A stretch of DNA of 64,000 nucleotides from Spirochaetes bacterium GWF1_51_8 (GCA_001829415.1 MIBE01000010.1:69926-133925); one strand, 5' to 3'; numbered from the stretch's first letter, positions 4,084 through 62,496 are shown. Translations and numbers: made by a program. The notes: generated from the letters alone by a model not told the origin.

Positions 4084-4180
4084 AAATTTTAAAAGCTACA
4101 CACCCATAATTTTATAACAAATCCACGGTTAGTCAAGAAAAAGAGGGAATTATTTGATTTTCGGCAGTATTTGGGCTTAA

Positions 4181-4391
4181 TGACAAACTCATTTTATCTT
4201 TGCGTGGCATCATGGTGAGCTTGCCTGCCTTCTCCTTCGGAGAAGGAGACAGGCCGAACCATAGCCGAAGCAATCTATTTAATTACTGGATATATCAATT
4301 AAATAGACTGCTTCTACCGCGCTTCAAAAATTTTTCGTAGCGCGGTATCGCAGTGACAAAAAATCGTGCATTTCATGACTTTGTCAACACG
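4181..4391. repeat. Palindromic mini-repeat, copy 1 (long imperfect hairpin with a nested sub-hairpin)
   Basis: Arms GAAGCAATCTATTTAATT (4267-4284) and AATTAAATAGACTGCTTC (4297-4314). Outer arms TGACAAA / TTTGTCA. Nested UUCG hairpin CCTGCCTTCTCCTTCGGAGAAGGAGACAGG at 4224-4253. Related copies at 30612-30750 and 51684-51844. Confidence 0.85.
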
Positions 4392-4561: not shown

Positions 4562-5371
4562 ATGAACGAAGGCTGGAAGAAGTACTCGGAGGCCAACCGT
4601 ACCGCGTGGAACGAAGCCGCGCCCATTCACCGGAAAACGAGGCCAGTAGACCTGAACGAGTTCTTCTCGAAACCCGGCGCGTCCCTGCTCGATCCTGTCG
4701 AGACCGGAATTCTTAAGTCGTTCGGCCTCGACGGTAAGACCGTAGCGCAGCTATGCTGTAACAACGGGCGCGATCTCATCTCGATTGTCAACATCGGGGC
4801 GAAATCCGGGACGGGCTTCGATATCTCAGACGGTTTTATCGAGGAAGCCCGTGAACTCGCGAAAACCGCCCGCGCGGATTGCGAATTCGTCCGCACCGAC
4901 ATTCTCGACATCGGACATGAATACGACAACCGTTTCGATATTGTCTATATCTCCATCGGCGCGCTCGCGTGGATGCCCGATCTCGAAGTGTTCTTCGGGA
5001 TTGCCGCCCGCATCATGAGGCCCGGCGGAAATCTTTTCATCTACGAGCACCATCCGATGACTTATCTCATTCCGTTCGAGGAATCCGGGTTTGCGCCCGA
5101 GGGGCTTGTGCTGAAGCCGGAGTATTCCTATTTTAATAAGCAGACAATTGAGGGACGGGGGCTGGACTATTTCGGCTTCACTGAGTACGGCGCGTCGAAG
5201 AACTTCGAGTTCCAGCATACGTTGGGCGAGATTGTCAATTCGGTGATCGGCGCGGGGATTGAGCTATGTGAACTCAAAGAGTATCCGCACGACATCGCTA
5301 ACGGATTCAAATGGGCGGAGGAGATGGGAAAGTTCCCGCTGAGCTATACGTTGACCGGGCGGAAGAAATAA
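4562..5371 (+). CDS. Class I SAM-dependent methyltransferase
   Basis: ORF 4436..5371 trimmed to ATG 4562, which follows AGGAG. Motif I-like VAQLCCNNGRDLI, then FDIVYISIGALAWMPD and GGNLFIYEHHP, typical of the Methyltransf_11/23 fold. Confidence 0.8.
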   Translation: MNEGWKKYSEANRTAWNEAAPIHRKTRPVDLNEFFSKPGASLLDPVETGILKSFGLDGKTVAQLCCNNGRDLISIVNIGAKSGTGFDISDGFIEEARELAKTARADCEFVRTDILDIGHEYDNRFDIVYISIGALAWMPDLEVFFGIAARIMRPGGNLFIYEHHPMTYLIPFEESGFAPEGLVLKPEYSYFNKQTIEGRGLDYFGFTEYGASKNFEFQHTLGEIVNSVIGAGIELCELKEYPHDIANGFKWAEEMGKFPLSYTLTGRKK

Positions 5372-5402: not shown

Positions 5403-5999
5403 CAGGAGAGTTCTAAAAATTCTCCACGGATGCAAAACCATCTGTTCTTTCTTTCTTCAAAACCAGAAAGAAAGAACCAAAGAAAGAGGTTCCCCGCCCG
5501 ATGCCGTTCCGAAGAAGAAGGGCGCGAAACGGGAAACGCCGAAACTCGCGTTCAACTGCCAAAAAAAAGCGTTAGAAAGTCACGCTTCGGACATCGGCGT
5601 TTCTTGCCGTTCCGCTTGGTAGAAGTCACGGCATAGCGGCGGGGTTCGAACAGCCGAAGATATAACTACATGGCAGAATTGAACTTGGCTGTTTGACCCG
5701 CGCACTTTAAAGCGCTTTAAACTACCGGAAAATCCGACCAAGGGCGCATGTCCGACACAGTCCCGTTGTCGCTCAAGAGGTCATTTCATGCGAGTTGCGC
5801 CCGTCTCGGATTTTCCTGCTGTTCTCCTGAGCTTTATCAGCGCGCCGGGTAGCTTGCCCCGCGTTCCTTGCGGGGTTCTTTGCTTACTTTCTTTCTGCCC
5901 GCTCACCGCGCCTTCCGCCGATGGCGTCGGCGGACAGGGAAAGAAAGTAAGAGTGTATTCATAGATTTTCTAAAACCCTTAAGGTTTTTAGAAGTACCC
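5403..5999 (+). repeat. About 600-nt hairpin-dense non-coding element, copy A (candidate large structured RNA or non-autonomous mobile element)
   Basis: Reverse-complement match to 54055-54654. Multiple perfect stems, for example 5444-5456/5465-5477, 5533-5542/5594-5603 and 5727-5737/5806-5816, and a long-range pairing 5492-5506/5629-5644. No ORF is conserved between the copies. Confidence 0.9.
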
Positions 6000-6087: not shown

Positions 6088-7395
6088 CTAACGCTTCCCC
6101 CATATCTTTACCACTGTCTCTTTCCCTTTTACCTTCGTCTCGCCGAGGGGCAGGAAGCAGTCCTGGAGTTCCCGAGGCAGGCATGAATAGAGCGTGTCCG
6201 TTACGATCAGCGGGTTGGCGTAGTCTTTCGTGAGTCCCTCGATCCGCGACGCGAGATTGACCGTATCGCCGATCACGGTAAACTCCTGCCTGTCCAGACT
6301 TCCGATAGTGCCGAGGAGCGCTTCGCCGTAATGGATGCCGATTCCGTTCTCGAAAACAGGCTCGCCGAGTTTAGTCCATTCGCGGTTGAGATCGGCGAGC
6401 GCCGCGCGCATCGCTATCGCCGCCCGGACCGCGTGATCGCAGGGGTACTCGAGCGGGGTCAATCCGCCGAAGTAAGCCATTACTGCGTCGCCGATAAATT
6501 TGTCGACAACCCCGCCGTGCGCGGTGATGCACTCTACCATCCGGTTGAAGTAACGGTTCAGATGCCCGACCACCTGTGTCGGTGAACGGGATTCGCTGAA
6601 GGCGGTGAACGAACGGATGTCCGAGAAGAGCACCGCGATCCGGTGTACCTCGCCGATCGTGCCGGATTTCTCGCGAATCAGCTTCTCCTTCACTTCCTCG
6701 GAAACGAATTTCCCGAAGAGCTTGCTGATGGACTGTTTCTCGTTGAGTTCGCCGAGGATTCTATAGATGAGCGATTTGAAGTGCGAGGACAGCGCCGCGA
6801 CGAGGTAGCCTGTGAAGATCATTGTCAGCGCCTTGAACATATGGAGCGGCATCGATGTCAGGTCCTGGATGACAGTCGGGCTTGCGCCGGATAGTCTGCC
6901 GAGCTCCGATGCCGCGAGCAGGGAGCATCCCGCGTATCCGATCCCGGTGAGCCATCCTCCCAGCCTCGACAGCGTCTCGTTAAACAGGAAGCCCGTCATC
7001 ACAATCAGGAAGAAGTTTAGGTAGGAGAACGGCCCTGTGATATACGCCGCGGCCCCGCCCTCGATAAAAAAGTGGCTGAGAATAAAAAGTGTAGTCGGGA
7101 TAAGGAGATAGGGGATAAAGATGCCGTAGATCAGCCGCACCGACAGCTTACCCGATCTCGCCGCGATGAAGAGGATGAAAGAAAGTATCCCGCCCGCGAA
7201 CGCCATCAAGCCGGGGATGAATACGTCGGCGATCAATCCCCACACTGTCAGGAGGAGGATGAACGCGCCGCCGCCGAGCCCCAGTATCGCGGCGAAAATC
7301 CCGCCGTTCTGGAGCACGGTGTTGACTTCTGTCCGAATTTCCCGTTCGACGATACTCCTGTCGAAATCCTTCAAATCTTTCATTTTATCCGGCAT
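6088..7395 (-). CDS. Membrane-anchored class III adenylate/guanylate cyclase
   Basis: 435 aa. N-terminal half has about 6 TM helices. C-terminal CYCc signatures VLFSDIRSFTAFSE, KFIGDAVMAYFG and FTVIGDTVNLASRIEG. Confidence 0.88.
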   Translation of the reverse strand: MPDKMKDLKDFDRSIVEREIRTEVNTVLQNGGIFAAILGLGGGAFILLLTVWGLIADVFIPGLMAFAGGILSFILFIAARSGKLSVRLIYGIFIPYLLIPTTLFILSHFFIEGGAAAYITGPFSYLNFFLIVMTGFLFNETLSRLGGWLTGIGYAGCSLLAASELGRLSGASPTVIQDLTSMPLHMFKALTMIFTGYLVAALSSHFKSLIYRILGELNEKQSISKLFGKFVSEEVKEKLIREKSGTIGEVHRIAVLFSDIRSFTAFSESRSPTQVVGHLNRYFNRMVECITAHGGVVDKFIGDAVMAYFGGLTPLEYPCDHAVRAAIAMRAALADLNREWTKLGEPVFENGIGIHYGEALLGTIGSLDRQEFTVIGDTVNLASRIEGLTKDYANPLIVTDTLYSCLPRELQDCFLPLGETKVKGKETVVKIWGKR

Positions 7396-30611: not shown

Positions 30612-30750
30612 CCTTGTCATTGCGAGTGTAGCGAAGCAATCTATTTCATTATTCGAAAATAAATTACACCGATTGCTTCTACCGCGCTTCAATAAGTTTC
30701 TGTAGCGCCTGTCTACCTTCGGTAGAAGGCAGGCGGTATCGCAATGATAA
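30612..30750. repeat. Palindromic mini-repeat, copy 2
   Basis: GTCATTGCGAG...GCGAAGCAATCTATTTCATT...GATTGCTTCTACCGCGCTTC...CGGTATCGCAATGA. Nested hairpin CCTGTCTACCTTCGGTAGAAGGCAGG at 30708-30733, here in the opposite arm compared with copy 1. Confidence 0.85.
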
Positions 30751-37872: not shown

Positions 37873-38040
37873 TTATTCGCCCGGCGCGTACTTTATCAGC
37901 TCCTCGATGACCGCGAGGGGTTCGGCTGCCTCGAACGAAAAGACCGGGTTGGGCAATGCGGACAGGGCGGCGGTTAGGCCTTCCGGGGTAAGCCGGATAC
38001 TTCGCCCGGGATCGCCGGGATTGAACATGAAACGTTCGAG
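37873..38040 (-). pseudogene. Detached 3'-terminal fragment of a ybaK-like gene (duplicate of 39052-39161 plus an alternative C-terminus)
   Basis: The minus-strand frame reads ...LERFMFNPGDPGRSIRLTPEGLTAALSALPNPVFSFEAAEPLAVIEELIKYAPGE*, with the stop at 37873-37875. 37931-38040 matches 39052-39161 with 4 mismatches in 110 nt. Confidence 0.8.
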
Positions 38041-38994
38041 CTATTTCTGTATGATATCCACCGTTTTTGCATATTGGTTACAGTATTCGCCACGGTCGGG
38101 ATCGAAGTATTTATGCTTGATGTTTTTCCCGTCGGGATAATCGTTATGCCCGCTTTTGGATAACACCGGGTCGTCCTTGGTCACATCAACGATATGCCAT
38201 GCTCCGTCGTAGTAAACTTCGTTCCACCCGTGAATACTCTTAGTTACACCGTTCTCTTTTTTCACACCCAGTATGCATTTAGCGGGGATCCCTATCGCAC
38301 GGCATAATGCGGCGGTTAGCGAACTGTATCCCCGGCAGACAGCCTTTCCAGTCTGCAGCACCTGCAACGCCGTATCCTCACTGTCCGGATCGGAATGGTA
38401 ACTGCAATGCTTCGCGACCCAGTCGTGGATGGCAAGGACTTTTTCCTTTTCCATCGAGAGCCCCATGGTTATTTCCTGCACCTGCTTAATTATTGCAGGA
38501 TCGAGCGATTGTACCCAATAGGAGGGTACCAGGTACGACAAGTTGTTGGTATTGATATTAATAATATAAAATTTCGCCATCCTTATCCAGACACCTTTAT
38601 CGTCCGGCCCAGCCAAAAGGGTTATCCGATAGCTTCCCTGATTGAGCTTGAAAAATATTGTATATTCGAAAAATCCCGGACCCTCCTGGAAATATTTAAT
38701 TCCTACGCCGGATGTTTCATGAAATACGGAGACCGCCATCTTTGGATAGGGATTAGCTAATAGATTGGTGCCGGAAATCGTGAAATAACCGTCCGCGCGG
38801 TTGGTCATCCCCCAGTCTCCGTTAATAGTGCCCCATTCACCATACTTTGTCTGGTGGTACATTTTTCCCGTGCCCACCGTGCCGAGATACCCGTTCAAAT
38901 GATACCCGCCAGGAAGTGTAATTCCGAAGTTTTGTTCCGCGCCAAGAGGTAAAGTCATAATGCATAATAAGAAAACAAGGATAGATAGTTGCAT
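38041..38994 (-). CDS. Secreted transglutaminase-like cysteine protease-fold protein (cassette gene)
   Basis: 317 aa with a signal peptide. Cys-His-Asp triad context CRGYSSL ... HGWNEVYYDGAWHIVDVTKDD. The stop codon abuts the 110-bp repeat. Confidence 0.8.
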   Translation of the reverse strand: MQLSILVFLLCIMTLPLGAEQNFGITLPGGYHLNGYLGTVGTGKMYHQTKYGEWGTINGDWGMTNRADGYFTISGTNLLANPYPKMAVSVFHETSGVGIKYFQEGPGFFEYTIFFKLNQGSYRITLLAGPDDKGVWIRMAKFYIININTNNLSYLVPSYWVQSLDPAIIKQVQEITMGLSMEKEKVLAIHDWVAKHCSYHSDPDSEDTALQVLQTGKAVCRGYSSLTAALCRAIGIPAKCILGVKKENGVTKSIHGWNEVYYDGAWHIVDVTKDDPVLSKSGHNDYPDGKNIKHKYFDPDRGEYCNQYAKTVDIIQK

Positions 38995-39008: not shown

Positions 39009-39527
39009 TCAGTTCGATATTTTTTTAATAATTATACCGGATTCTCCGGATTCGAACGTAAAGACCGGGTTGGGCAAAACGGACAGGGCGGCGGTCAGGC
39101 CTTCCGGGGTAAGCCGGATACTTCGCCCGGGATCGCCGGGATTGAACATGAAACGTTCGAGGGTGAAAATTTCGCGGTCGATATAGATCGGAATGGTGCC
39201 GGATGTGTGGCCGAACGGCGGAACGGAACCCGGGCGGCATCCAGTGTTCGCGGAAACTTCTTCGTCGGTCGCGAAACGGATATCCTTTGTGCCGAACTCC
39301 TTTTTGAACATCCGGGCCTTGATCTGCTTTCCGGCGGTCGTCACCACGAGGTAAAACTTACCCTTCGCGTGAAAAAGGATGTTCTTGCTTCCGGCGCCTA
39401 TGGTCCAGCTTTGGAGGGCCCGTTCGCGCGCGGAGTCGTCGGTAGTGACGACCGCGGCGTGCTCTATCTCGTCATAGGGGATATCCGACTTCTTCAGGAT
39501 AGAAACGATTTTGTCATAGACCGTCAT
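39009..39527 (-). CDS. YbaK/ProX-type aminoacyl-tRNA editing domain protein
   Basis: 172 aa. KNILFHAKGKFYLVV and GCRPGSVPPFG motifs. The last 14 aa are encoded by the unique sequence between the repeat and the cassette gene. Confidence 0.8.
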   Translation of the reverse strand: MTVYDKIVSILKKSDIPYDEIEHAAVVTTDDSARERALQSWTIGAGSKNILFHAKGKFYLVVTTAGKQIKARMFKKEFGTKDIRFATDEEVSANTGCRPGSVPPFGHTSGTIPIYIDREIFTLERFMFNPGDPGRSIRLTPEGLTAALSVLPNPVFTFESGESGIIIKKISN

Positions 39528-43031: not shown

Positions 43032-43511
43032 ATGGAGGATTCGATGAGAAATCTGCTGTCCAAGTTCAGCCTGAAAACGCAGACTCCCGTGCTGATCGTG
43101 AACCCGCCCGCGGAGTTCGCCGAGGGCCTCGCCGAATTCGAGGCGGCGACCGAGGTACACGGCGTTCCCGACGCCGGGACGAAATACGGCTTCGCGCTCC
43201 TTTTCGCGAAGGACGCCGCCGAACTGGAAAAGTACGCACCCGCCGTTCTGAATTCCTACGAGGGCGACGCGGTACTCTGGTTTGCTTATCCGAAAAAGAC
43301 GTCGAAGAAGTACAATTCCGACCTTTCACGCGACGAGGGCTGGAGGGTGCTCGGCAACGCCGGACTCGAGCCGGTCAGCCAGATCGCGGTCGACGACGAC
43401 TGGTCGGCGGTCCGTTTCCGCGCGGTGGGGTATATTAAGAAAATGATCCGGCCGGAGGGCGGGATGCTGAGCGAAGCCGGACGCGCCCGTGCGAAGAAAG
43501 ATAAAAAGTGA
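43032..43511 (+). CDS. Conserved hypothetical cytoplasmic protein
   Basis: 159 aa. Codon usage matches neighbouring genes. No motif that I can name. Confidence 0.5.
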   Translation: MEDSMRNLLSKFSLKTQTPVLIVNPPAEFAEGLAEFEAATEVHGVPDAGTKYGFALLFAKDAAELEKYAPAVLNSYEGDAVLWFAYPKKTSKKYNSDLSRDEGWRVLGNAGLEPVSQIAVDDDWSAVRFRAVGYIKKMIRPEGGMLSEAGRARAKKDKK

Positions 43512-43984
43512 CCAATCCCATACTCGGGTTTTTCCGAACTATCGGCCTATTCGTCGCCGGACGGGTAAAGTATCATACCGGAAGTAAGGGGCAAGTCCTC
43601 ACCATGGACGACGGTAAGAAGTTCACCGTATTCCGCCATGTCGTGATCCGTCCGGGGAAAAACGCGCCCGAGCCGCAGGCTGTGTTCGTTGTCCGTTTCC
43701 GCCCGAAGAAAATGTCCGTCCGCGCGAATATCCGTTTCTCCCTCCTCCCGATGATGATCTTTATGGGGTTTTCCGGCTTCCGTTCTAAGTACTGGGCGGT
43801 GGATTACGAGACCGGATTGTGCCAGGGGCTTTACGAATGGCAGACGGCCGCCGATGCGGAGAACTACAGCCGTTCGGTCGCGATGCGGTTCATGGCAAAA
43901 CGTTCCGACCCTGTGTCCGTTGAATGGAGGATAGTGGAAAAAGGAAAAGATAAGAAAAGTTTATTTGAGCTTAAAGACAAATAA
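43508..43984 (+). CDS. Hypothetical protein
   Basis: 158 aa. 4-nt overlap with the upstream gene suggests translational coupling. Confidence 0.5.
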   Translation: MTNPILGFFRTIGLFVAGRVKYHTGSKGQVLTMDDGKKFTVFRHVVIRPGKNAPEPQAVFVVRFRPKKMSVRANIRFSLLPMMIFMGFSGFRSKYWAVDYETGLCQGLYEWQTAADAENYSRSVAMRFMAKRSDPVSVEWRIVEKGKDKKSLFELKDK

Positions 43985-44167
43985 TCTCCAAGTAAGAATG
44001 CGTTTGCGATTCAGGCGGGAATGCGGTTTCCACGCCGGATTTGGGCTGTACTTCAATTCCACCAGGCCGAGGATGACGCCGATCACACAGATGAACGCGG
44101 ATAATCATAAAAAAGGTGAAAGAAACGGATTTACCCGAGATTGAAGAGATTATCAAGGAGAAGAGGA

Positions 44168-44428
44168 ATGATTTCATCGGCGAATGGAATAAGCATTTCG
44201 GAATATGAGGTCACAAATATCGAACGATTAGGATTTTGGCTGTATGTCGACGATACGGAATATTTCGTCAGTTTCGACCGGTTTCCCGCATTTAAAAACG
44301 CGCCCGTGGGGCAAATTCTGAATGTAAAACGCCTCGACCCTTCGCAATTCAACTGGCCCGATCTGGATATCGACGTCGATATCGAATCGTTGAGCGCACC
44401 GGACAAGTATCCGTTGGAATATAAGTAG
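44168..44428 (+). CDS. DUF2442-family small protein
   Basis: ATG 44168 follows AAGGAG. GFWLYVDDTEYFVSFDRFPAFKNAP...NWPDLDIDVDIESL is typical of DUF2442. The sequence just upstream reads like the C-terminal remnant of a DUF4160 partner (..FIGEWNKHFGI*). Confidence 0.65.
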   Translation: MISSANGISISEYEVTNIERLGFWLYVDDTEYFVSFDRFPAFKNAPVGQILNVKRLDPSQFNWPDLDIDVDIESLSAPDKYPLEYK

Positions 44429-44509
44429 AAAAAATCCGCATGAGTATTGTTATCGCATGGAGACTGCGGTAAGGCCGATGCGGCAGGCTTACTGTATTAA
44501 TAAAACTTC

Positions 44510-44588
44510 TTACAAAAACCTTTCGTCGAAAAACCGTTTCGCTTCCTTCACCAGCCTCTCGCGCTTCCCGAACAGCACCTTCGCGGGG
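44510..44588 (-). pseudogene. Detached duplicate of the last 79 nt of the DinG-like helicase gene
   Basis: Matches 45457-45535 with 3 mismatches. The minus frame reads ...AKVLFGKRERLVKEAKRFFDERFL*, against ...FFNERFL* in the intact gene. Confidence 0.85.
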
Positions 44589-44615
44589 CGTTTTTTTATT
44601 TCGGCAGGCGGGGTA

Positions 44616-44653
44616 TAAGAAAAACGGGAAAAGTAATTATCATACTTTTCCCG
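44616..44653 (-). terminator. Rho-independent terminator of the cassette gene
   Basis: Stem CGGGAAAAGTA/TACTTTTCCCG (44625-44635/44643-44653), followed on the minus strand by TTTTTCTT. Confidence 0.7.
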
Positions 44654-44676
44654 TAAGGTTTGTTAATACGATCGGG

Positions 44677-45273
44677 TTACCATGTGATGATATAGGTACA
44701 ACTGTTAGTCCCGTTCTTTCGACAAGGCGCCGAATCAAGATGGGTGACTGAAGCTTTCAGTTCGAATTTTTTTGCCATTGCGGTGATGATTCCTTTATCA
44801 AAATCGCAGGGATAGGGATTGTTGCATTCGCTGATTATCATATTTTTACTGCTCAATCTCTCGAAGCCGTAATGCCCGATACCTTCCTTCATGTTTCCGG
44901 TGCTCGGATCGAAGAGCGGAATATTGTTTTTCCGGTGATTCATATGATACGCGACGTCGATAGATTTTATAGCGGTATCGATATCCTTGACCCACGGGGG
45001 AAAGATCGCGTTTTCAGGTATTTTTAATCCTATTTGGAAGAGAGTCCCGCTTCCTACTTCCTTTCCGATATTTTCGAATGCTTTCAGCCATTTTTCCTGA
45101 GAATACCATGCATCTTTGTTAATCACCGCTACGCCATCGGAACCTTTTTCTCCGATTCCCTGTTCAAGCAGATACTTTGATGCCATAATTTTAAAATTCC
45201 TGAACCCGTCAACAATAGAAAATACCGTCGTACCGTTTACCTCGATTCCGTTTTCAAATACCCTGTACTGCAT
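44677..45273 (-). CDS. Hypothetical protein (cassette gene controlled by the GTTTCTAT operator)
   Basis: 198 aa; MQYRVFENGIEVNGTTVF...CTYIITW. No motif that I recognise. GGAGGAAGG Shine-Dalgarno precedes the ATG. Confidence 0.6.
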   Translation of the reverse strand: MQYRVFENGIEVNGTTVFSIVDGFRNFKIMASKYLLEQGIGEKGSDGVAVINKDAWYSQEKWLKAFENIGKEVGSGTLFQIGLKIPENAIFPPWVKDIDTAIKSIDVAYHMNHRKNNIPLFDPSTGNMKEGIGHYGFERLSSKNMIISECNNPYPCDFDKGIITAMAKKFELKASVTHLDSAPCRKNGTNSCTYIITW

Positions 45274-45310
45274 ACCTTCCTCCGGATATAGAATTCAATT
45301 GAAAACACTG

Positions 45311-45377
45311 ATAGAAAAACATAGTAACATGTTTCTATACATAGAAACATGTTACTATGCATAGAAACATTTGTCAA
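45311..45377 (-). promoter_or_regulatory. Promoter plus tandem palindromic operators of the cassette gene
   Basis: Minus strand: TTGACA (45377-45372), 17 nt, TAACAT (45354-45349). Palindromes GTTTCTATACATAGAAAC (45331-45348) and GTTACTATGCATAGAAAC (45351-45368), plus a degenerate unit at 45311-45328. Confidence 0.65.
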
Positions 45378-45456
45378 GGAAATTTGTGATTTGTATCGAT
45401 TGATAAAGAAAAACAGAGGCATATTACAGAGAAATGTTAATACAAGCGGAGCGGGA

Positions 45457-47937
45457 TTATAAAAACCTTTCGTTGAAAAACCGTTTCGCTTCCTTCACCA
45501 ACCTCTCGCGCTTCCCGAACAGCACCTTCGCGGGGGGGAGCGAGTTCAAAAAGTTACTGCCGTAGTTCTTCGTCTTCAAGCGGTTGTCCATGATCGCGAT
45601 CACGCCTTTGTCGGTCTTACTGCGGATCAGGCGGCCCATTCCCTGCTTGAGGCGGAGGATCGCGCGGGGCAGGCTGAAGCTGATGAACGAGTTGACACCC
45701 TTCGAGTCTAAGAGCGCGACCTTCGCGCGGTAGATCGGGTCGTCGGGATTGTCGAACGGGAGTTTCTCGATGATAACGCAGCGGAGGTTGTCGCCCCGGA
45801 TATCGATCCCCTCCCAGAAGCTCGATGTCGCGAAGAGGACGCTGTAGCCCCGGCTCTTCATCGTGTCGAGCAGGAGGTTGCGCGCGCGTTCGCCCTGACG
45901 GATCGGGAGGAGGCCGTGCTCCATCAGCTCGTTCTTCAGGAGGCCGTACATCTCGGTCAGCCGGAGGTAGGATGTGAACAGCGCGAGGACACCGCCCTGG
46001 CTCGCGAGGCAGAGGTCGCGGACAAACCCGGTCTTCTCGCCGGTCACCTTGCTGTGCTCCCCGCCGTCCTCGAGGATATAGATTTCCGCTTGTTTCCGGT
46101 AGTCGAACGGCGAGGGGAGCGAGAGTTCGAGCATCTCCTTGTTCGACGCCAAGTTCAGTCCGGTGCTCATCCGGAAATAATCGAACTTTTTATTGACCGA
46201 GAGCGTCGCCGAGGTGAAGATCGTGAAGTCCTTCTTGCCGAAGATCGAGTTCGCGAGGAAATCGCCGACCTCGAGCGGGCTGAAGGAGAAACGGATGTTC
46301 TTCGGGGTGACCTCTATCCATCGCACCTGCTCGGGCGTGGTTTCGGAGAGGAAGACCGTGTTGAAGATATCGCTCATCTCGATCAGGGTGTCGATCCGCG
46401 AACGGACGATACGGACGATGTCGGTATACGAGTTGTCGGTCGCGCTGTCGAACAACCGGTTCATGAGCGATGTCAGTTCCCCGACAAACTTATTGAGCAT
46501 GCCGAAGAGCGACTGGAGCTTGTCGCGCAGGTATGCGAAGTCTTTCGTGCCCCGGTAGACGTCGTCGATCCCGATTGTCGACGAGAACTCCGATCCCTTC
46601 CGTAAAACCTTCATAAACTCGTCGAAAAGCTCGTGCGACACACCCGCGACCGTTTTCAGCAGGTTGAGGAGCTGTTCGTAACTTTCGACCAGCTCGGGAT
46701 GCGCATGGATACCGCCCTTCCTCGCTACCAGAGTAATCAAGCCCGATTCACTGCTGTCGCGGCGCTTCTTGAAATAGAGCTTACGCAGGTGGTAAAAGAG
46801 GCTCTGGAACGAGAAGCTCCGGGAGAGCGAACGGAGCGCGGTGTCTTCTATATGGTGCGCTTCGTCGAACACGATTCCGGAGTAGAACGGCATGACGTTG
46901 CGGTAGGACTGGATATCGATCGACGAGAAGACGAGCGAATGGTTCGCGATGACGATCTGCGCCTTTTCCGCGCCGAGCCTCGCTTTATAATAGAAACACG
47001 CGCTGTAGTAACGGCACCGTTTGCGGTCGCACATCATGCTCTCGCTTCTGATCTCTTCCCATATCTCTTCCTTGACCTGCTCGGGGTACTCCCCACGGGT
47101 ACCGTTATGCCCGCTCCGCGACCAGAGCTCGATATCGTGCAGGAGCAGGCCCTCGTTCTCGCTCTCGAACAGGGAACTTTGTGTATCCTTGTCGCGCAGG
47201 AGGTCTGTGAGCCGTTTCCGGCAAAGGTAGTTTCCACGTCCGACCAATACCGCGTGATAGAGCGGTTTATTCAGGTACTTCATCACGACCCGTTCGACGA
47301 TCTGCATATCCTTTTCCGCGATCTGCTGCTGGAGATTGATCGTGTGGGTGGAGATCATCACGCGTTTTTTATTCTCTACCGCCCAAAGCGCGGCGGGGAT
47401 AAGGTACGAAAGTGATTTCCCGGTGCCCGTCCCGGCTTCACAGAGCAGTATCTTCGAGTCGTTGACAGCCCAGACAACGTGCGCGACCATATCGATCTGC
47501 TCGCCGCGCGGTTCGAAGTTCGCGATATTCTCCGAAAGGACGCCGTGGTCGCCGAACAGCCCCAGCACTTCCTCGTCCTTGAGGTAGACCCGCGAACGGG
47601 GCTGGAGGACGATATTGACCTCGGTGCATTCGTTATTGACGATATAGAAGCCGACCATCCTGTTCGCGAGAAGCGATGAGAGTTCGATATCTTCCACCGA
47701 CGGCACGGTGTTCCCCGACGGGTGATTGTGGATGACGACGTCGCCGGACAACGCTTCCATCATCGAGATGACGGTCGCGTCCTCGCTCCCGAACGACATC
47801 GGCGAGACCTCGACGGCTTTCCCGCTCCGGTCGACACTGCCGGAGAACGAGACTTCGTTGCCGCCGTTCTTGTCGATATATTCTACGATAGTCCTGATCG
47901 CGTCTTCGGAAAGGACCTGAGCTGCGTTTACTTTCAT
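45457..47937 (-). CDS. dinG: DinG/XPD-family Fe-S DNA helicase with an N-terminal RadC-like JAB/MPN domain
   Basis: 826 aa. JAMM motif HNHPSGNTVPSVED (47689-47730). Walker A AGTGTGKS, DEAH box VFDEAHH, four Cys of an XPD-type cluster (LCRK, MMCD, RCRYY, SACFY), and a C-terminal helicase_C_2-like region. Confidence 0.85.
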   Translation of the reverse strand: MKVNAAQVLSEDAIRTIVEYIDKNGGNEVSFSGSVDRSGKAVEVSPMSFGSEDATVISMMEALSGDVVIHNHPSGNTVPSVEDIELSSLLANRMVGFYIVNNECTEVNIVLQPRSRVYLKDEEVLGLFGDHGVLSENIANFEPRGEQIDMVAHVVWAVNDSKILLCEAGTGTGKSLSYLIPAALWAVENKKRVMISTHTINLQQQIAEKDMQIVERVVMKYLNKPLYHAVLVGRGNYLCRKRLTDLLRDKDTQSSLFESENEGLLLHDIELWSRSGHNGTRGEYPEQVKEEIWEEIRSESMMCDRKRCRYYSACFYYKARLGAEKAQIVIANHSLVFSSIDIQSYRNVMPFYSGIVFDEAHHIEDTALRSLSRSFSFQSLFYHLRKLYFKKRRDSSESGLITLVARKGGIHAHPELVESYEQLLNLLKTVAGVSHELFDEFMKVLRKGSEFSSTIGIDDVYRGTKDFAYLRDKLQSLFGMLNKFVGELTSLMNRLFDSATDNSYTDIVRIVRSRIDTLIEMSDIFNTVFLSETTPEQVRWIEVTPKNIRFSFSPLEVGDFLANSIFGKKDFTIFTSATLSVNKKFDYFRMSTGLNLASNKEMLELSLPSPFDYRKQAEIYILEDGGEHSKVTGEKTGFVRDLCLASQGGVLALFTSYLRLTEMYGLLKNELMEHGLLPIRQGERARNLLLDTMKSRGYSVLFATSSFWEGIDIRGDNLRCVIIEKLPFDNPDDPIYRAKVALLDSKGVNSFISFSLPRAILRLKQGMGRLIRSKTDKGVIAIMDNRLKTKNYGSNFLNSLPPAKVLFGKRERLVKEAKRFFNERFL

Positions 47938-51683: not shown

Positions 51684-51844
51684 TTGACAAACTTGTCTTG
51701 TCATTGCAAGGCGTCATGGGGAGCTTGCCGAAACATAGCCGAAGCAATCTATGTTATTAACTGATTAATAATTACATAGACTGCTTCACCGCTTCGCGTT
51801 TCGCAGTGACAAGAAATCTATTTAATACCGGCTTCGTCAACACG
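51684..51844. repeat. Palindromic mini-repeat, copy 3 (no nested sub-hairpin)
   Basis: TTGACAAAC...GTCATTGCAAG...GAGCTTGCCGAAACATAGCCGAAGCAATCTATG...CATAGACTGCTTCACCGC...GCAGTGACAAG...CGTCAACACG. Collinear with copy 1 apart from the missing 30-nt module. Confidence 0.85.
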
Positions 51845-54054: not shown

Positions 54055-54654
54055 GGGTAGTTATAAAAACCTTAAGGATTTTAGAAAACTATAAATATAC
54101 TCTTACTTTCTTTCTGAGCGGGCACCGCGCCTTCCGCCAGCCTTCCATCTCAGAAGGAAAGTGAACAGGACGATGGCGTCGGCGGACAGGGAAAGAAAGT
54201 AACAAAGAACCCCGCAAGGAACGCGGGGCAAGCTATCCGCCGCGCTGATAAAGCTCAGGGGAAGAGCCGGAAAATCCGGAAAAGGCATAACTCCTCCCTT
54301 CGGTCGTCGAACAAATGCCTTTTCTTCGGATTTCCCGGGAGTTTGAAGCGCTTTAAAGTGCGCGGACAAAACAGCCAACTTCAGTCACCTATTCATGTCT
54401 TCGGCTGTTCGAACCCCGCCGCTATGCCGTGACTTCTACCAAGCGGAACGGCCAGAAACGCCGATGTCCGAAGCGTGACTTTATATCGCTTCTTTTGGCG
54501 GCCGACCGCGAGTTTCGGCGTTTCCCGTTTCGCGCCCCTCTTCTTTGGAACGGCATCGGGCGGGGAACCTCTTTCTTTCGTTCTTTCTTTCTGGGTTTGC
54601 AGAAAGAAAGAACAGTGGGTTTTACATCCTTGGAGATTTTTTTGAACTCTCCTG
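54055..54654 (-). repeat. About 600-nt hairpin-dense non-coding element, copy B (reverse orientation relative to copy A)
   Basis: The reverse complement aligns end to end with 5403-5999. It carries a 33-nt insertion (54139-54171) and an oppositely oriented IR-flanked segment (54103-54203). Confidence 0.9.
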
Positions 54655-60824: not shown

Positions 60825-60871
60825 TTTACAGGATTTATAATCCTTTATATAATGTTTCTATGTATAGAAAC
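60825..60871 (+). promoter_or_regulatory. trpR-like/trpB2 promoter with palindromic operator
   Basis: TTTACA (60825-60830), 17 nt, TATAAT (60848-60853), immediately followed by GTTTCTATGTATAGAAAC (60854-60871). Confidence 0.65.
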
Positions 60872-60884
60872 GGCAGACGTGGCA

Positions 60885-61160
60885 ATGGATCTTTATGACG
60901 CGTTTCTCAGTATTGAGAATAAAGGGGACATCGAAAAACTGTTCGACGAACTGTTTACGCCGTCGGAGAAGAAAAGACTCTTATTGAGATGGAGACTGCT
61001 CGGGATGCTTAGGCGCCGGACGCCGCAAAGGAAGATTGCGTCGGAATTGGGGATTAGCCTCTGCAAGATCACCCGCGGCGCGGGGATACTCAGGAAAAAA
61101 GATTCGTTATTATATAGAATACTCAGTGAAGGAGATAAAGATGGAAATTCAGAAGATTGA
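60885..61160 (+). CDS. TrpR-like (YerC/YecD family) DNA-binding protein
   Basis: ORF 60852..61160 trimmed to MDLYDAFL (ATG 60885). [20 protein letters not shown]...[18 protein letters not shown] is the TrpR-family HTH pattern. Confidence 0.75.
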
Positions 61161-62496
61161 TCTCGCCCAGAAAGATATGCCGCGCAAGTGGTATAATATC
61201 CAGGCCGATCTGCCCAAACCTCTCGATCCGCCGTTAGGCCCCGACGGGAATCCTGTCACCCCGCAGCAGCTTGCGGCGATTTTCCCGATGGGTGTTATCG
61301 AGCAGGAAGTATCCACGGAGCGTTGGATCGATATCCCCGAAGATGTTCTCGACGTTTATGCCCGTTGGAGACCCGCGCCAATTTTCCGCGCTATTCATCT
61401 TGAAAAAGCGCTCGGCACTCCCGCGAAAATATACTATAAATATGAAGGTTGTTCGCCCGCCGGATCGCACAAGCCGAATACCTCGGTCGCGCAGGCGTAT
61501 TACAATAAGAAGGAAGGCGTTAAGCGTATAACGACCGAAACCGGAGCAGGTCAGTGGGGCAGCGCGCTTGCGCTTGCCGGCGCTCTCTTCGGTATCGAAG
61601 TCCGGGTCTATATGGTGCGCACCAGCTACGACTCCAAACCCTACCGCAAGATGATGATGAGCACATGGGGCGCGGAATGTTTCCCCAGCCCGAGCGATAA
61701 GACGGAATACGGCCGCAAGGTACTTGCGCAGGACCCGAATTGTCCCGGAAGCCTCGGAATGGCTATTTCGGAAGCTGTCGAAGAAGCGGCGTCCCGTAAG
61801 GATACCAATTACTCCCTCGGAAGCGTGCTGAACCATGTCCTCATGCACCAGACAATCATCGGTCTCGAGTGTAAGGCACAGCTCAAGCAGATCAACGTCT
61901 ATCCCGATGTCGTGATCGGATGTGTCGGCGGCGGAAGCAACTTCGCCGGCATCGCATTTCCTTATCTTTATGACAAATTGACCGAAAATAAAAAGGTGGA
62001 TATTATCGCCGTCGAGCCGCGTTCGTGCCCGACGATCACGAAGGGTATCTACGATTACGATTTCGGCGATACAGCCGGGATGGCGCCGATTGTGAAAATG
62101 TACACGTTGGGGCATACGTTTATGCCGCCGGCCATTCACGCGGGCGGGCTCCGTTACCACGGTATGGCGCCGCTGGTAAGCGCACTCGCCAACCAGAAAC
62201 TGATCGAAGCGCGCGCGTATCACCAGACGGAAGTGTTCGAAGCGGGCGTACTCTTTGCGAGAACTGAGGGAATGGTTCCCGCGCCGGAAACCACCCATGC
62301 CTTGAAATGCGCTATCGAAGAAGCGAAAAAGGCGAAAGAGGAAGGAAAAGAGAAGACCATCCTGTTCAATTTCAGCGGTCACGGTATTTTCGATTTGGCT
62401 TCCTACGACAAATTTTTGAGCGGACAGCTCGAAGATTACGAGTATCCTGAAGAAGAGATACAACGAGCCCTAAAAATATTACCTTTTAAGAACTAA
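61141..62496 (+). CDS. trpB: Tryptophan synthase beta chain, TrpB2 type
   Basis: ORF trimmed to [20 protein letters not shown] (ATG 61141). [10 protein letters not shown] carries the PLP Lys, with [11 protein letters not shown] and [11 protein letters not shown]. Overlaps the trpR-like stop by 20 nt. Confidence 0.88.

Follow-up and report, generated by a model that had tools for sequence, protein, structure and literature searches.

Two single-gene insertions bracketed by duplicated gene 3' ends in a Brevinematales spirochaete resemble recombination scars of a known type

Integrative elements that enter at the 3' ends of genes typically supply a surrogate end, encode an integrase beside one att site and are flanked by direct repeats ending at the stop codon. 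Insertion sequences (IS) and transposons are marked by terminal inverted repeats, a transposase and a target duplication of 2-14 bp. Integrons are marked by a gene for the tyrosine recombinase IntI, with attI beside the cassette array, and by attC, an imperfect inverted repeat with R''/L''-L'/R' cores that closes an open reading frame (ORF) usually devoid of a promoter. Closer to the arrangement described here is "insertion with long target duplication", which was published for restriction-modification genes (Nobusato et al. 2000; Furuta, Abe & Kobayashi 2010, PMC2853133). Some of the published repeats overlap the 3' end of an upstream gene, and the mechanism was left open, with double-strand breaks made by the restriction-modification system suspected and fill-in of staggered breaks hypothesised (PMC2853133). 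In Rhs, contact-dependent inhibition (CDI) and type VI secretion system (T6SS) effector loci, displaced or "orphan" 3' ends have been ascribed to homology-facilitated illegitimate recombination (Kirchberger et al. 2017, PMC5361080). Here we analyze a 64,000-nt stretch of DNA from Spirochaetes bacterium GWF1_51_8 (GCA_001829415.1, MIBE01000010.1:69926-133925; hereafter the window), in which a DinG-like helicase gene and a YbaK-like tRNA-editing gene are each followed by one accessory gene and then by a detached, near-identical copy of the host gene's own 3' end. We give a roughly even chance to the reading that both structures are scars left by homology-facilitated illegitimate recombination, a recurrent process and not a dedicated mobile element.

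The first host gene encodes an 826-aa DinG/YoaA-like helicase with a RadC/JAB-like N-terminus (45457-47937, minus strand; ORF with Pfam and NCBIfam matches). Its Pfam domains are Helicase_C_2 (2.8e-45), DEAD_2 and a weak RadC, the NCBIfam assignment is YoaA/DinG, and its closest relatives are found in Brevinematales, with 74% identity to the helicase of a syntenic relative, L014 (GCA_013177895.1). Both this helicase and the 198-aa protein described below are identical to proteins of the metagenome-assembled genome GWF1_51_8. The last 25 helicase codons and the TAA stop lie in the gene-attached copy of a 79-nt direct repeat (45457-45535, minus strand; repeat comparison and self-BLAST), and the second copy, detached from the gene, lies on the same strand at 44510-44588 with frame and stop intact. 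The copies are identical at 76 of 79 positions, and self-BLAST of the window returns the pair with E = 5e-30. Read on the coding strand, both encode PAKVLFGKRERLVKEAKRFF(N/D)ERFL before the stop, the attached copy ending in ...RFFNERFL and the detached copy in ...RFFDERFL. The three mismatches are TTG/CTG (synonymous), AAC/GAC (N/D) and TTA/TTG (synonymous), and at these sites the attached copy carries T, A and A and the detached copy C, G and G. In one direction similarity breaks off precisely at the stop codon; in the other it stops at a C-run, where the helicase reads ...GCTCCC/CCCCGCG and the detached copy ...AAAAAAACG/CCCCGCG (slashes mark edges and joins); the junction between the insert and the detached copy, ...AAAAAAACG/CCCCGCGAAGG, falls at this C-run of helicase sequence. 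The DNA past the detached stop (44429-44509, minus strand) is predicted to fold into a hairpin, CCGCAU...AUGCGG, followed by U6 (RNA fold, z = -0.4), which may have been the helicase's original terminator, common to a convergent DUF2442 gene. As a separate observation on this host gene, the fusion of a RadC/JAB-like N-terminal segment (HNHPSG motif) to a DinG/YoaA-type helicase is kept in Brevinematales and in Geobacter-like homologues.

Six assemblies (L005, L006, L007, L008, L017 and L019), which come from JGI, ENA and Logan and from different samples, span the insert and both repeat copies without a mismatch to the window. L005, L007, L017 and L019 are 100% identical to it, and L006 (99.2%) and L008 (99.9%) differ by gaps only; some short-read contigs stop within the repeats, as a real repeat would give. 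Because independent assemblies and samples cross both junctions in this way, we rule out an assembly chimera, a possibility that an earlier note on this DNA had raised. That note had also placed the 79-nt repeat and its three mismatches at the positions given above and had named the two encoded ends; the alignment and the coding-strand reading reproduce both exactly.

Between the two copies lies an 868-bp, low-GC unit made up of a promoter, two palindromic operators, a gene for a 198-aa protein and a terminator, all on the minus strand. The leader (45274-45456; promoter scan and operator pattern) contains a sigma-70-like promoter, TTGACA-17-TAACAT (45377 to 45349), two overlapping 22-nt palindromic operators, ATGTTTCTATnnATAGAAACAT, at 45329-45350 and 45349-45370, and a ribosome-binding site; a pattern search for the operator finds 3 matches in the window, where chance alone would give 0. 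The cargo gene (44677-45273) is followed by a rho-independent terminator with a 12-bp stem and a T-run (44624-44654, dG = -17.1, z = -3.1). Every part of the expression unit proposed in the earlier note was thus recovered by the scans, and its terminator, placed there at 44616-44653, was essentially right. GC content is about 0.33-0.45 in the inserted unit and 0.55-0.63 along the helicase gene (0.57 overall), and third-position GC content (GC3) is 0.48 in the 198-aa gene versus 0.81 in the helicase gene.

The second case lies 6.5 kb away. Its host gene encodes a 172-aa YbaK-like tRNA-editing domain protein (39009-39527, minus strand; Pfam tRNA_edit, 2e-23), and its cargo, on the same strand, a 317-aa secreted transglutaminase-like protein (38041-38994; Pfam Transglut_core, 1.1e-24). 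A 110-nt repeat with 96% identity is present in a gene-attached copy (39052-39161, minus strand; repeat comparison and self-BLAST) and a detached copy (37931-38040); in the output of the repeat tool it reaches 123 nt at 92%. Downstream of the repeat the two ends differ. The host gene closes with an AT-rich "tail A" (39009-39053, minus strand; tail comparison), the last 14 codons and stop, which reads FESGESGIIIKKISN, so that the protein ends in ...PNPVFTFESGESGIIIKKISN. The detached end (37873-38040, minus strand) consists of the 110-nt copy and a GC-rich "tail B", ...FEAAEPLAVIEELIKYAPGE, and runs to its own stop as ...PNPVFSFEAAEPLAVIEELIKYAPGE; in L019 a gene caller reported it as a 51-aa ORF. 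By hand count, third positions are G or C in about 4/13 codons of tail A, which is cargo-like, and in about 14/18 codons of tail B, which is host-like; the composition of the 110-nt repeat that precedes each tail is host-like in the attached and the detached copy alike. Both tails are homologous to the real tRNA-editing end in relatives, which reads FEEGESGAIIEKLDAAT (...PNPVYIFEEGESGAIIEKLDAAT) in L014 and ...PNPVSIFEISENGVSIEKAGRQ in L016, a contig from a JGI metagenome. Since tail A is AT-rich and nevertheless homologous to true ends, the inserted DNA must have come with a gene end of its own, and the left join was made in register, guided by homology. This attached end is more than a repeat with unrelated cassette DNA behind it: tail A is a diverged, AT-rich version of the true end.

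The transglutaminase gene starts with an ATG 14 nt after the tRNA-editing stop, at a Shine-Dalgarno-like GAGGGA, has no promoter of its own, and ends with a TAG that abuts the detached repeat directly (..GAAATAG/CTCGAACG). Because it lacks a promoter and begins so close to the host stop, it is not a self-contained cassette; the layout claimed earlier for both sites, of host gene, cargo and detached 3' end, stands. The composition of both cargoes is foreign to the region, with GC3 of 0.48 for the 198-aa gene and 0.55 for the transglutaminase gene against 0.65-0.81 for the genes flanking them.

Comparison with L014 and L016, both Brevinematales, supports both units being insertions relative to syntenic relatives. 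The order FtsK, helicase, CvpA, 177-179-aa gene, CinA, small ORF, CBM21, tRNA-editing gene, cupin and PurD is kept in both. L014 lacks both cargo genes: non-coding DNA extends for 563 bp beyond its helicase gene, and its tRNA-editing gene, of 174 aa, has the cupin gene 48 nt downstream. L016 lacks the 198-aa gene at the helicase site and carries, between the tRNA-editing and cupin genes as in the window, a 301-aa transglutaminase with 66% identity, whose divergence equals that of the neighboring genes. BLAST alignments of the window to the relatives end at the helicase stop codon and resume only at CvpA. At the second site the alignment to L014 runs through the tRNA-editing gene to 39021, inside the tail, and resumes 31 nt before cupin, whereas that to L016 is unbroken from CBM21 through the tRNA-editing gene to the transglutaminase stop; from the tRNA-editing gene over tail A to the transglutaminase, the window and L016 are collinear, with 68% nucleotide identity. 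The earlier note had proposed a search for empty sites, and L014 supplies a clean one for the second case. L016 also keeps a vestige of about 30 nt of the tRNA-editing end after its transglutaminase gene (region 6907-7010): ATTATCCGGAAATTGGATGATACAACTTGA, 53 nt past the stop, aligns with the last ten codons of the L014 gene, ATTATCGAAAAACTGGATGCCGCAACTTGA, and the DNA that follows. This vestige is a more ancient and eroded form of the scar, which thus occurs in a second lineage as well.

What the sequences show directly are the insertions themselves, their repeats, a donor-type homologous tail, the absence of any recombinase or common motif, and relatives with empty and with occupied sites. 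On the reading that we prefer at roughly even confidence, the donor would have been a related genome in which an accessory gene lay directly downstream of a conserved housekeeping gene. One end of the incoming DNA would have entered by a homologous crossover within the 3'-terminal part of the gene common to both genomes. Its far end, without a homologous partner, would have been joined illegitimately upstream of the recipient's own stop, 79 nt upstream at the helicase gene and about 168 nt upstream at the tRNA-editing gene. This would leave a functional gene whose end is donor-derived or chimeric, followed by the cargo and, behind it, by the old end of the recipient, now detached; the detached 79-nt copy at 44510-44588 is probably the original helicase end of the recipient. 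At the helicase site the terminator-like hairpin with its U-run may also have been stranded behind the cargo, as far as its weak predicted fold allows. The short duplication would need two copies of the target, such as the sister chromosomes of transformation-induced merodiploidy (PMC3784515), or a template switch. Because no donor genome and no conspecific empty-site allele was found, we infer which genome gave and which received and where the crossover fell, as well as the direction of transfer and the origin of the short duplication.

Several features of the joins fit this account. An anchoring segment should join in register and bring its own copy of the shared sequence; tail A does both and runs on into the cargo, whereas the three AT-biased differences of the helicase site are compatible with an anchor, not more. 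The second join should be non-homologous, with microhomology at most; extended homology is absent from the junctions TAG/CTCGAACG and ...AAAAAAACG/CCCCGCG, where microhomology could be scored only against a donor sequence. The right joins are arbitrary in position, one lying directly after the transglutaminase stop and the other after the cargo terminator at the helicase C-run. The 5' parts of both repeats are identical between copies (34 nt and 44 nt), and mismatches pile up toward the gene end; this polarity and the AT bias of the attached copy would fit, weakly, a recipient/donor chimera with a donor of lower GC. Divergence is alike in the two repeats (3.8% and 3.6%), and this likeness and the spacing of the scars agree either with two transfers out of one donor population or with the import of one fragment, from 44588 to 38041, that had two heterologous ends.

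Other considerations weigh against recombination scars of this kind. Classical homology-facilitated illegitimate recombination mostly yields an insertion with a deletion, not a duplication, and the account therefore needs the extra assumption of sister copies or a template switch. It also presupposes that the host could take up and recombine DNA, by natural competence or another route. The mismatch polarity is weakly significant, at an estimated p of about 0.02 for both repeats combined. At the helicase site the intergenic DNA of the relatives is unrelated to that of the window, and no base-exact empty site is available. All assemblies are essentially identical to the window, and neither a donor genome nor a conspecific empty-site allele was found among them; a scan of genomes for closer relatives or empty-site alleles gave only a 53% relative and more distant ones, a scan of metagenomes gave one 31% relative, and exact-protein look-ups of the DUF2442 and cupin neighbors returned the same clone only.

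We searched the window for machinery that could have moved the two units. Pfam scans of about 50 ORFs across the 64 kb found no integrase, transposase, resolvase or reverse transcriptase, and scans of the window for tRNA and tmRNA genes and against Rfam returned nothing. When the junctions and unit ends of both cases were aligned on either strand, they matched no better than shuffled sequence and had no shared end motif; neither unit has terminal inverted repeats, and the two repeats have no common core sequence. Within the window, a tblastn scan of gene tails against downstream DNA recovered just these two detached tails; it recovered none from 128 kb at other loci.

The alternative that survives best, which we nonetheless consider unlikely, is a Campbell-type integration, in which a circle of about 0.95 kb (1.1 kb for the second case) carrying the cargo and one 3' end would be inserted by a single RecA-dependent crossover; such circles could stem from repeat-by-repeat excision in a sister genome. 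It yields direct repeats from one crossover with no illegitimate join, accounts for an insert that has a homologous gene end, requires no recombinase gene, and fits repeats whose divergence of 3.6-3.8% is that of alleles of one related population. A crossover of this type should leave both copies as chimeras with mismatches on both sides, however, whereas their first 34 and 44 nt are mismatch-free, and the circle of the second case would have to combine a host-identical 5' part with a tail only about 50% identical. The formation and transfer of a non-replicating 1-kb circle would also be needed, and no contig hints at a circle beyond ordinary repeat-induced assembly breaks.

Less probable again, and to our minds quite unlikely, is a true long target duplication, in which staggered breaks 79-168 nt apart were filled in after ligation of foreign DNA and the mismatches arose by later drift. 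The sizes agree with the published class of inserts under 20 kb, with repeats over 30 bp and no mobility genes (PMC2853133), and the identity of the 5' parts of both repeats is what a duplication predicts. The homology of tail A, on the other hand, shows a left join guided by homology and not a blunt insertion; drift would not be expected to reach 3.6-3.8% in the 3' part only, with an AT bias in the very copy that is under selection; and the cargo is not a restriction-modification system and encodes no nuclease to make the breaks.

We attach small weight, smaller than to a target duplication, to remnants of a site-specific element, in which a tyrosine or serine integrase, since lost or acting in trans, left the repeats as attL and attR. 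Direct repeats over the 3' end of a gene are indeed present, the 79-nt and 110-nt repeats including or approaching the stop codon; the helicase repeat ends at that codon, as is typical of integrative elements at 3' ends, and tail A acts like a surrogate end. An integrase island as such was rejected, since neither the inserts, which hold one non-recombinase gene each, nor the 64-kb window contains an integrase. The inserts measure only 0.87 kb and about 1.0 kb, the lack of a common core would demand two specificities, and the transglutaminase of L016, with its neighbor-like divergence, fits a locus-bound exchange better than a mobile one.

More doubtful than any of these is a recombinase-free form of mobility, in which the 3'-end copy would serve as a homology "address label": circles of about 1 kb would leave by recombination between repeats and re-enter at the same gene through RecA, recurrently in Brevinematales, and the transglutaminase units here and in L016 would be independent. 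A diversity-generating retroelement, with the detached copy as template repeat for the helicase C-terminus, can be set aside as having a negligible chance, for a downstream near-identical 3'-end repeat only superficially resembles a variable/template pair when the window has no reverse transcriptase, the T/C, A/G and A/G differences are neither adenine-specific nor confined to template adenines, 2/3 of them are synonymous, and a complete unrelated gene lies between the copies.

Standard mobile units were rejected on their hallmarks. For an integron cassette there is no IntI or attI and no attC, the 3' end being a plain terminator hairpin followed by the helicase-end copy, and a promoter is present; for an IS element or transposon there are no terminal inverted repeats and no transposase, and the duplication is 79-110 nt long. 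We also rejected a purely ancestral, vertically inherited transglutaminase gene, which its neighbor-like divergence from L016 might suggest, since a 96% repeat beside a tail of about 50% and the low GC3 would then need ad hoc gene conversion; it was retained only as part of the history of this locus, as an old locus-bound polymorphism. The lack of recombinase, reverse transcriptase, tRNA, shared motif and terminal inverted repeats bears out the earlier note's view that the site is no standard integron, transposon or genomic island. Its further suggestion, of a recurrent integration mechanism targeting gene 3' ends, is plausible as to recurrence, but nothing points to a dedicated or new mechanism, and that part is further weakened by the transglutaminase at the same site in L016, with its neighbor-like divergence, and by the prior publication of the architecture.

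The 198-aa protein, called unknown in the earlier note, has more than 900 homologues of 197-204 aa with 56-71% identity across phyla, and profile scans of Pfam and NCBIfam and a sequence search of PDB gave no match. An AlphaFold model built with 64 homologues has a pLDDT of 96.7, and when this model was compared to PDB with Foldseek, the top 38 matches were all H-NOX (heme nitric oxide/oxygen binding) proteins or soluble guanylate cyclase (sGC), at E = 1e-5, TM about 0.6 and over the full length. Hence the absence of a named family stands and an H-NOX-like fold is now predicted. The likeness to H-NOX proteins lies in the predicted fold, at a similar size of about 190 aa; sequence identity is 10-16%, the protein has no match to Pfam HNOB and so resembles the H-NOX family in fold only, and its own family has an invariant His/Asn/His/Arg motif (H110, N112, H113 and R114) and several cysteines (C150, C184 and C192). 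Members of the H-NOX family have a proximal His and a Y-x-S-x-R heme-binding motif, and the invariant H110, H113 and R114 are candidate counterparts of the heme ligands. On the strength of the model, the protein appears to belong to a large uncharacterised H-NOX-fold family. Its homologues adjoin genes for histidine kinases, methyl-accepting chemotaxis proteins (MCP), SpoIIE phosphatases, cyclic-nucleotide (cNMP)-binding proteins and TonB receptors, and these signaling and receptor neighbors make a role as a small-ligand sensor likely, with heme a candidate ligand.

At five other loci of this family (L011, L012, L024, L027 and L031) no duplicated 3' end of a neighboring gene was found, and the 198-aa gene occurs in no phages and, among plasmids, only in ten megaplasmids. 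One of these loci, L027, from an unrelated genome, has a feature of its own: a 53-nt direct repeat (85%; 4168-4220 and 5095-5147) surrounds a single CvfB-like gene directly downstream of the 198-aa homologue, and these repeats are intergenic, not a gene end.

The third match to the operator (60852-60873; pattern match) lies 15 kb from the 198-aa unit, directly upstream of a TrpR-family repressor gene (60885-61160, plus strand; Pfam Trp_repressor, 6.8e-15), which is followed by a gene for a TrpB-like enzyme dependent on pyridoxal phosphate (PLP; 61036-62496, plus strand; NCBIfam TrpB-like, 6.5e-225). The TrpR-family protein is the likely regulator of the 198-aa gene, which seems to sit in a TrpR-type regulon because the 22-nt palindrome precedes both genes; membership in such a regulon hints at a link of the H-NOX-like gene to tryptophan or indole. 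Because its operators match that of the host's TrpR-family gene, the 198-aa unit looks wired into a regulon of the clade and not autonomous. The shared operator also implies that the unit came from a genome with this regulator or had been resident in one for a long time; the donor would then belong to the same clade, as homology-driven exchange requires.

The surroundings of the helicase site differ between the genomes as well. The 2.5 kb from the helicase gene to CvpA, which hold the 198-aa unit, the detached end, the DUF2442 gene and two unknown genes, have no counterpart in L014 or L016, and for this reason we regard the gap as a variable hotspot for accessory DNA. The DUF2442 gene (GC3 0.53) and the two unknown genes (158 and 159 aa) occupy 43032-44428 on the plus strand and are absent from both relatives. 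A by-eye likeness between the DNA past the attached helicase stop and the native intergenic DNA of the relatives, which would have shifted the boundary of the insertion, was discarded after local alignment (z = 1.4).

Repeats of other kinds occur in the same DNA. A non-coding element of about 600 nt is present twice, in inverted orientation and 48 kb apart (5403-5999 and 54055-54654), with 78% identity, no conserved ORF and no Rfam match; its core of about 100 nt, with a hairpin CTTTCTTTC...GAAAGAAAG, lies in the helicase-CvpA gap of L014 (10618-10696) and of L016 (1405-1504), and the element looks like a dispersed repeat family. The L016 gap also holds a 35-nt repeat, AAAGGGGTGTTTTTCCATCCCTAATATCCCTAATT, twice (1668-1702 and 1754-1788), and by eye the counterpart region of L014 has a similar sequence, GGGGTGCTTTTCTATCCCTAACTTGCC. 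Elsewhere in the window a palindromic intergenic repeat of 50-78 nt, GAAGCAATCTAT...ATAGACTGCTTC, occurs in three copies (4253-4343, 30632-30708 and 51727-51792) that are about 82-84% identical.

If the two structures are scars of homology-facilitated illegitimate recombination, they offer a natural example of accessory genes entering a core chromosomal region without mobile-element machinery in an uncultivated Brevinematales spirochaete, a case for which a relative with an empty site, another with an occupied site and a donor-type gene end are all at hand. Recombining through RecA, the repeats could precisely delete the cargo and restore an intact gene, and insertions so precisely reversible may help explain the presence/absence polymorphism of single genes. 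The case would extend insertion with long target duplication beyond restriction-modification genes and tie that class to homology-anchored recombination, and an H-NOX-fold gene under tandem TrpR-family operators is a testable lead on function.

Compared to the systems introduced at the outset, the locus shares most with insertion with long target duplication (PMC2853133): a short insert of atypical GC, no mobility gene, direct repeats of the target of tens to hundreds of base pairs, and an empty site in a relative. The screen of Furuta and colleagues took inserts under 20 kb with repeats over 30 bp that are present as a single copy at the empty site, and the transglutaminase case has all of these, with L014 as the empty site; at the helicase site each relative has a single gene end and lacks the 198-aa gene, and the DNA downstream of it is unrelated. 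That screen also called for homologues of restriction and modification genes in the insert; unlike that class, the cargoes here are an H-NOX-fold, sensor-like gene and a transglutaminase-like gene, and at one site the attached copy closes with a homologous but diverged allele, pointing to a homologous crossover. As in the Rhs, CDI and T6SS loci (PMC5361080), a conserved gene body anchors the exchange, a new end and its linked gene enter, and the old end persists downstream as a fragment, with part of the conserved sequence still in common. Those loci encode polymorphic toxins under diversifying selection and form arrays, whereas the anchors here are housekeeping genes (the DinG-like helicase and the YbaK-like deacylase), the cargo has no relation to toxins or restriction, the old ends are replaced by functionally equivalent ones, and each site has a single displacement. 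Direct repeats that end at a gene end, and an insert that supplies a replacement end, recall integrase-borne islands and prophages, but these inserts of about 1 kb carry one gene each, without an integrase or a common core. With integron cassettes they share the single-gene unit and the fixed orientation, but the 198-aa unit has its own promoter and terminator, and its flanks are copies of a host gene and not attC. The architecture is already known in type, and the evidence points to a known kind of scar and not to a new integration system.

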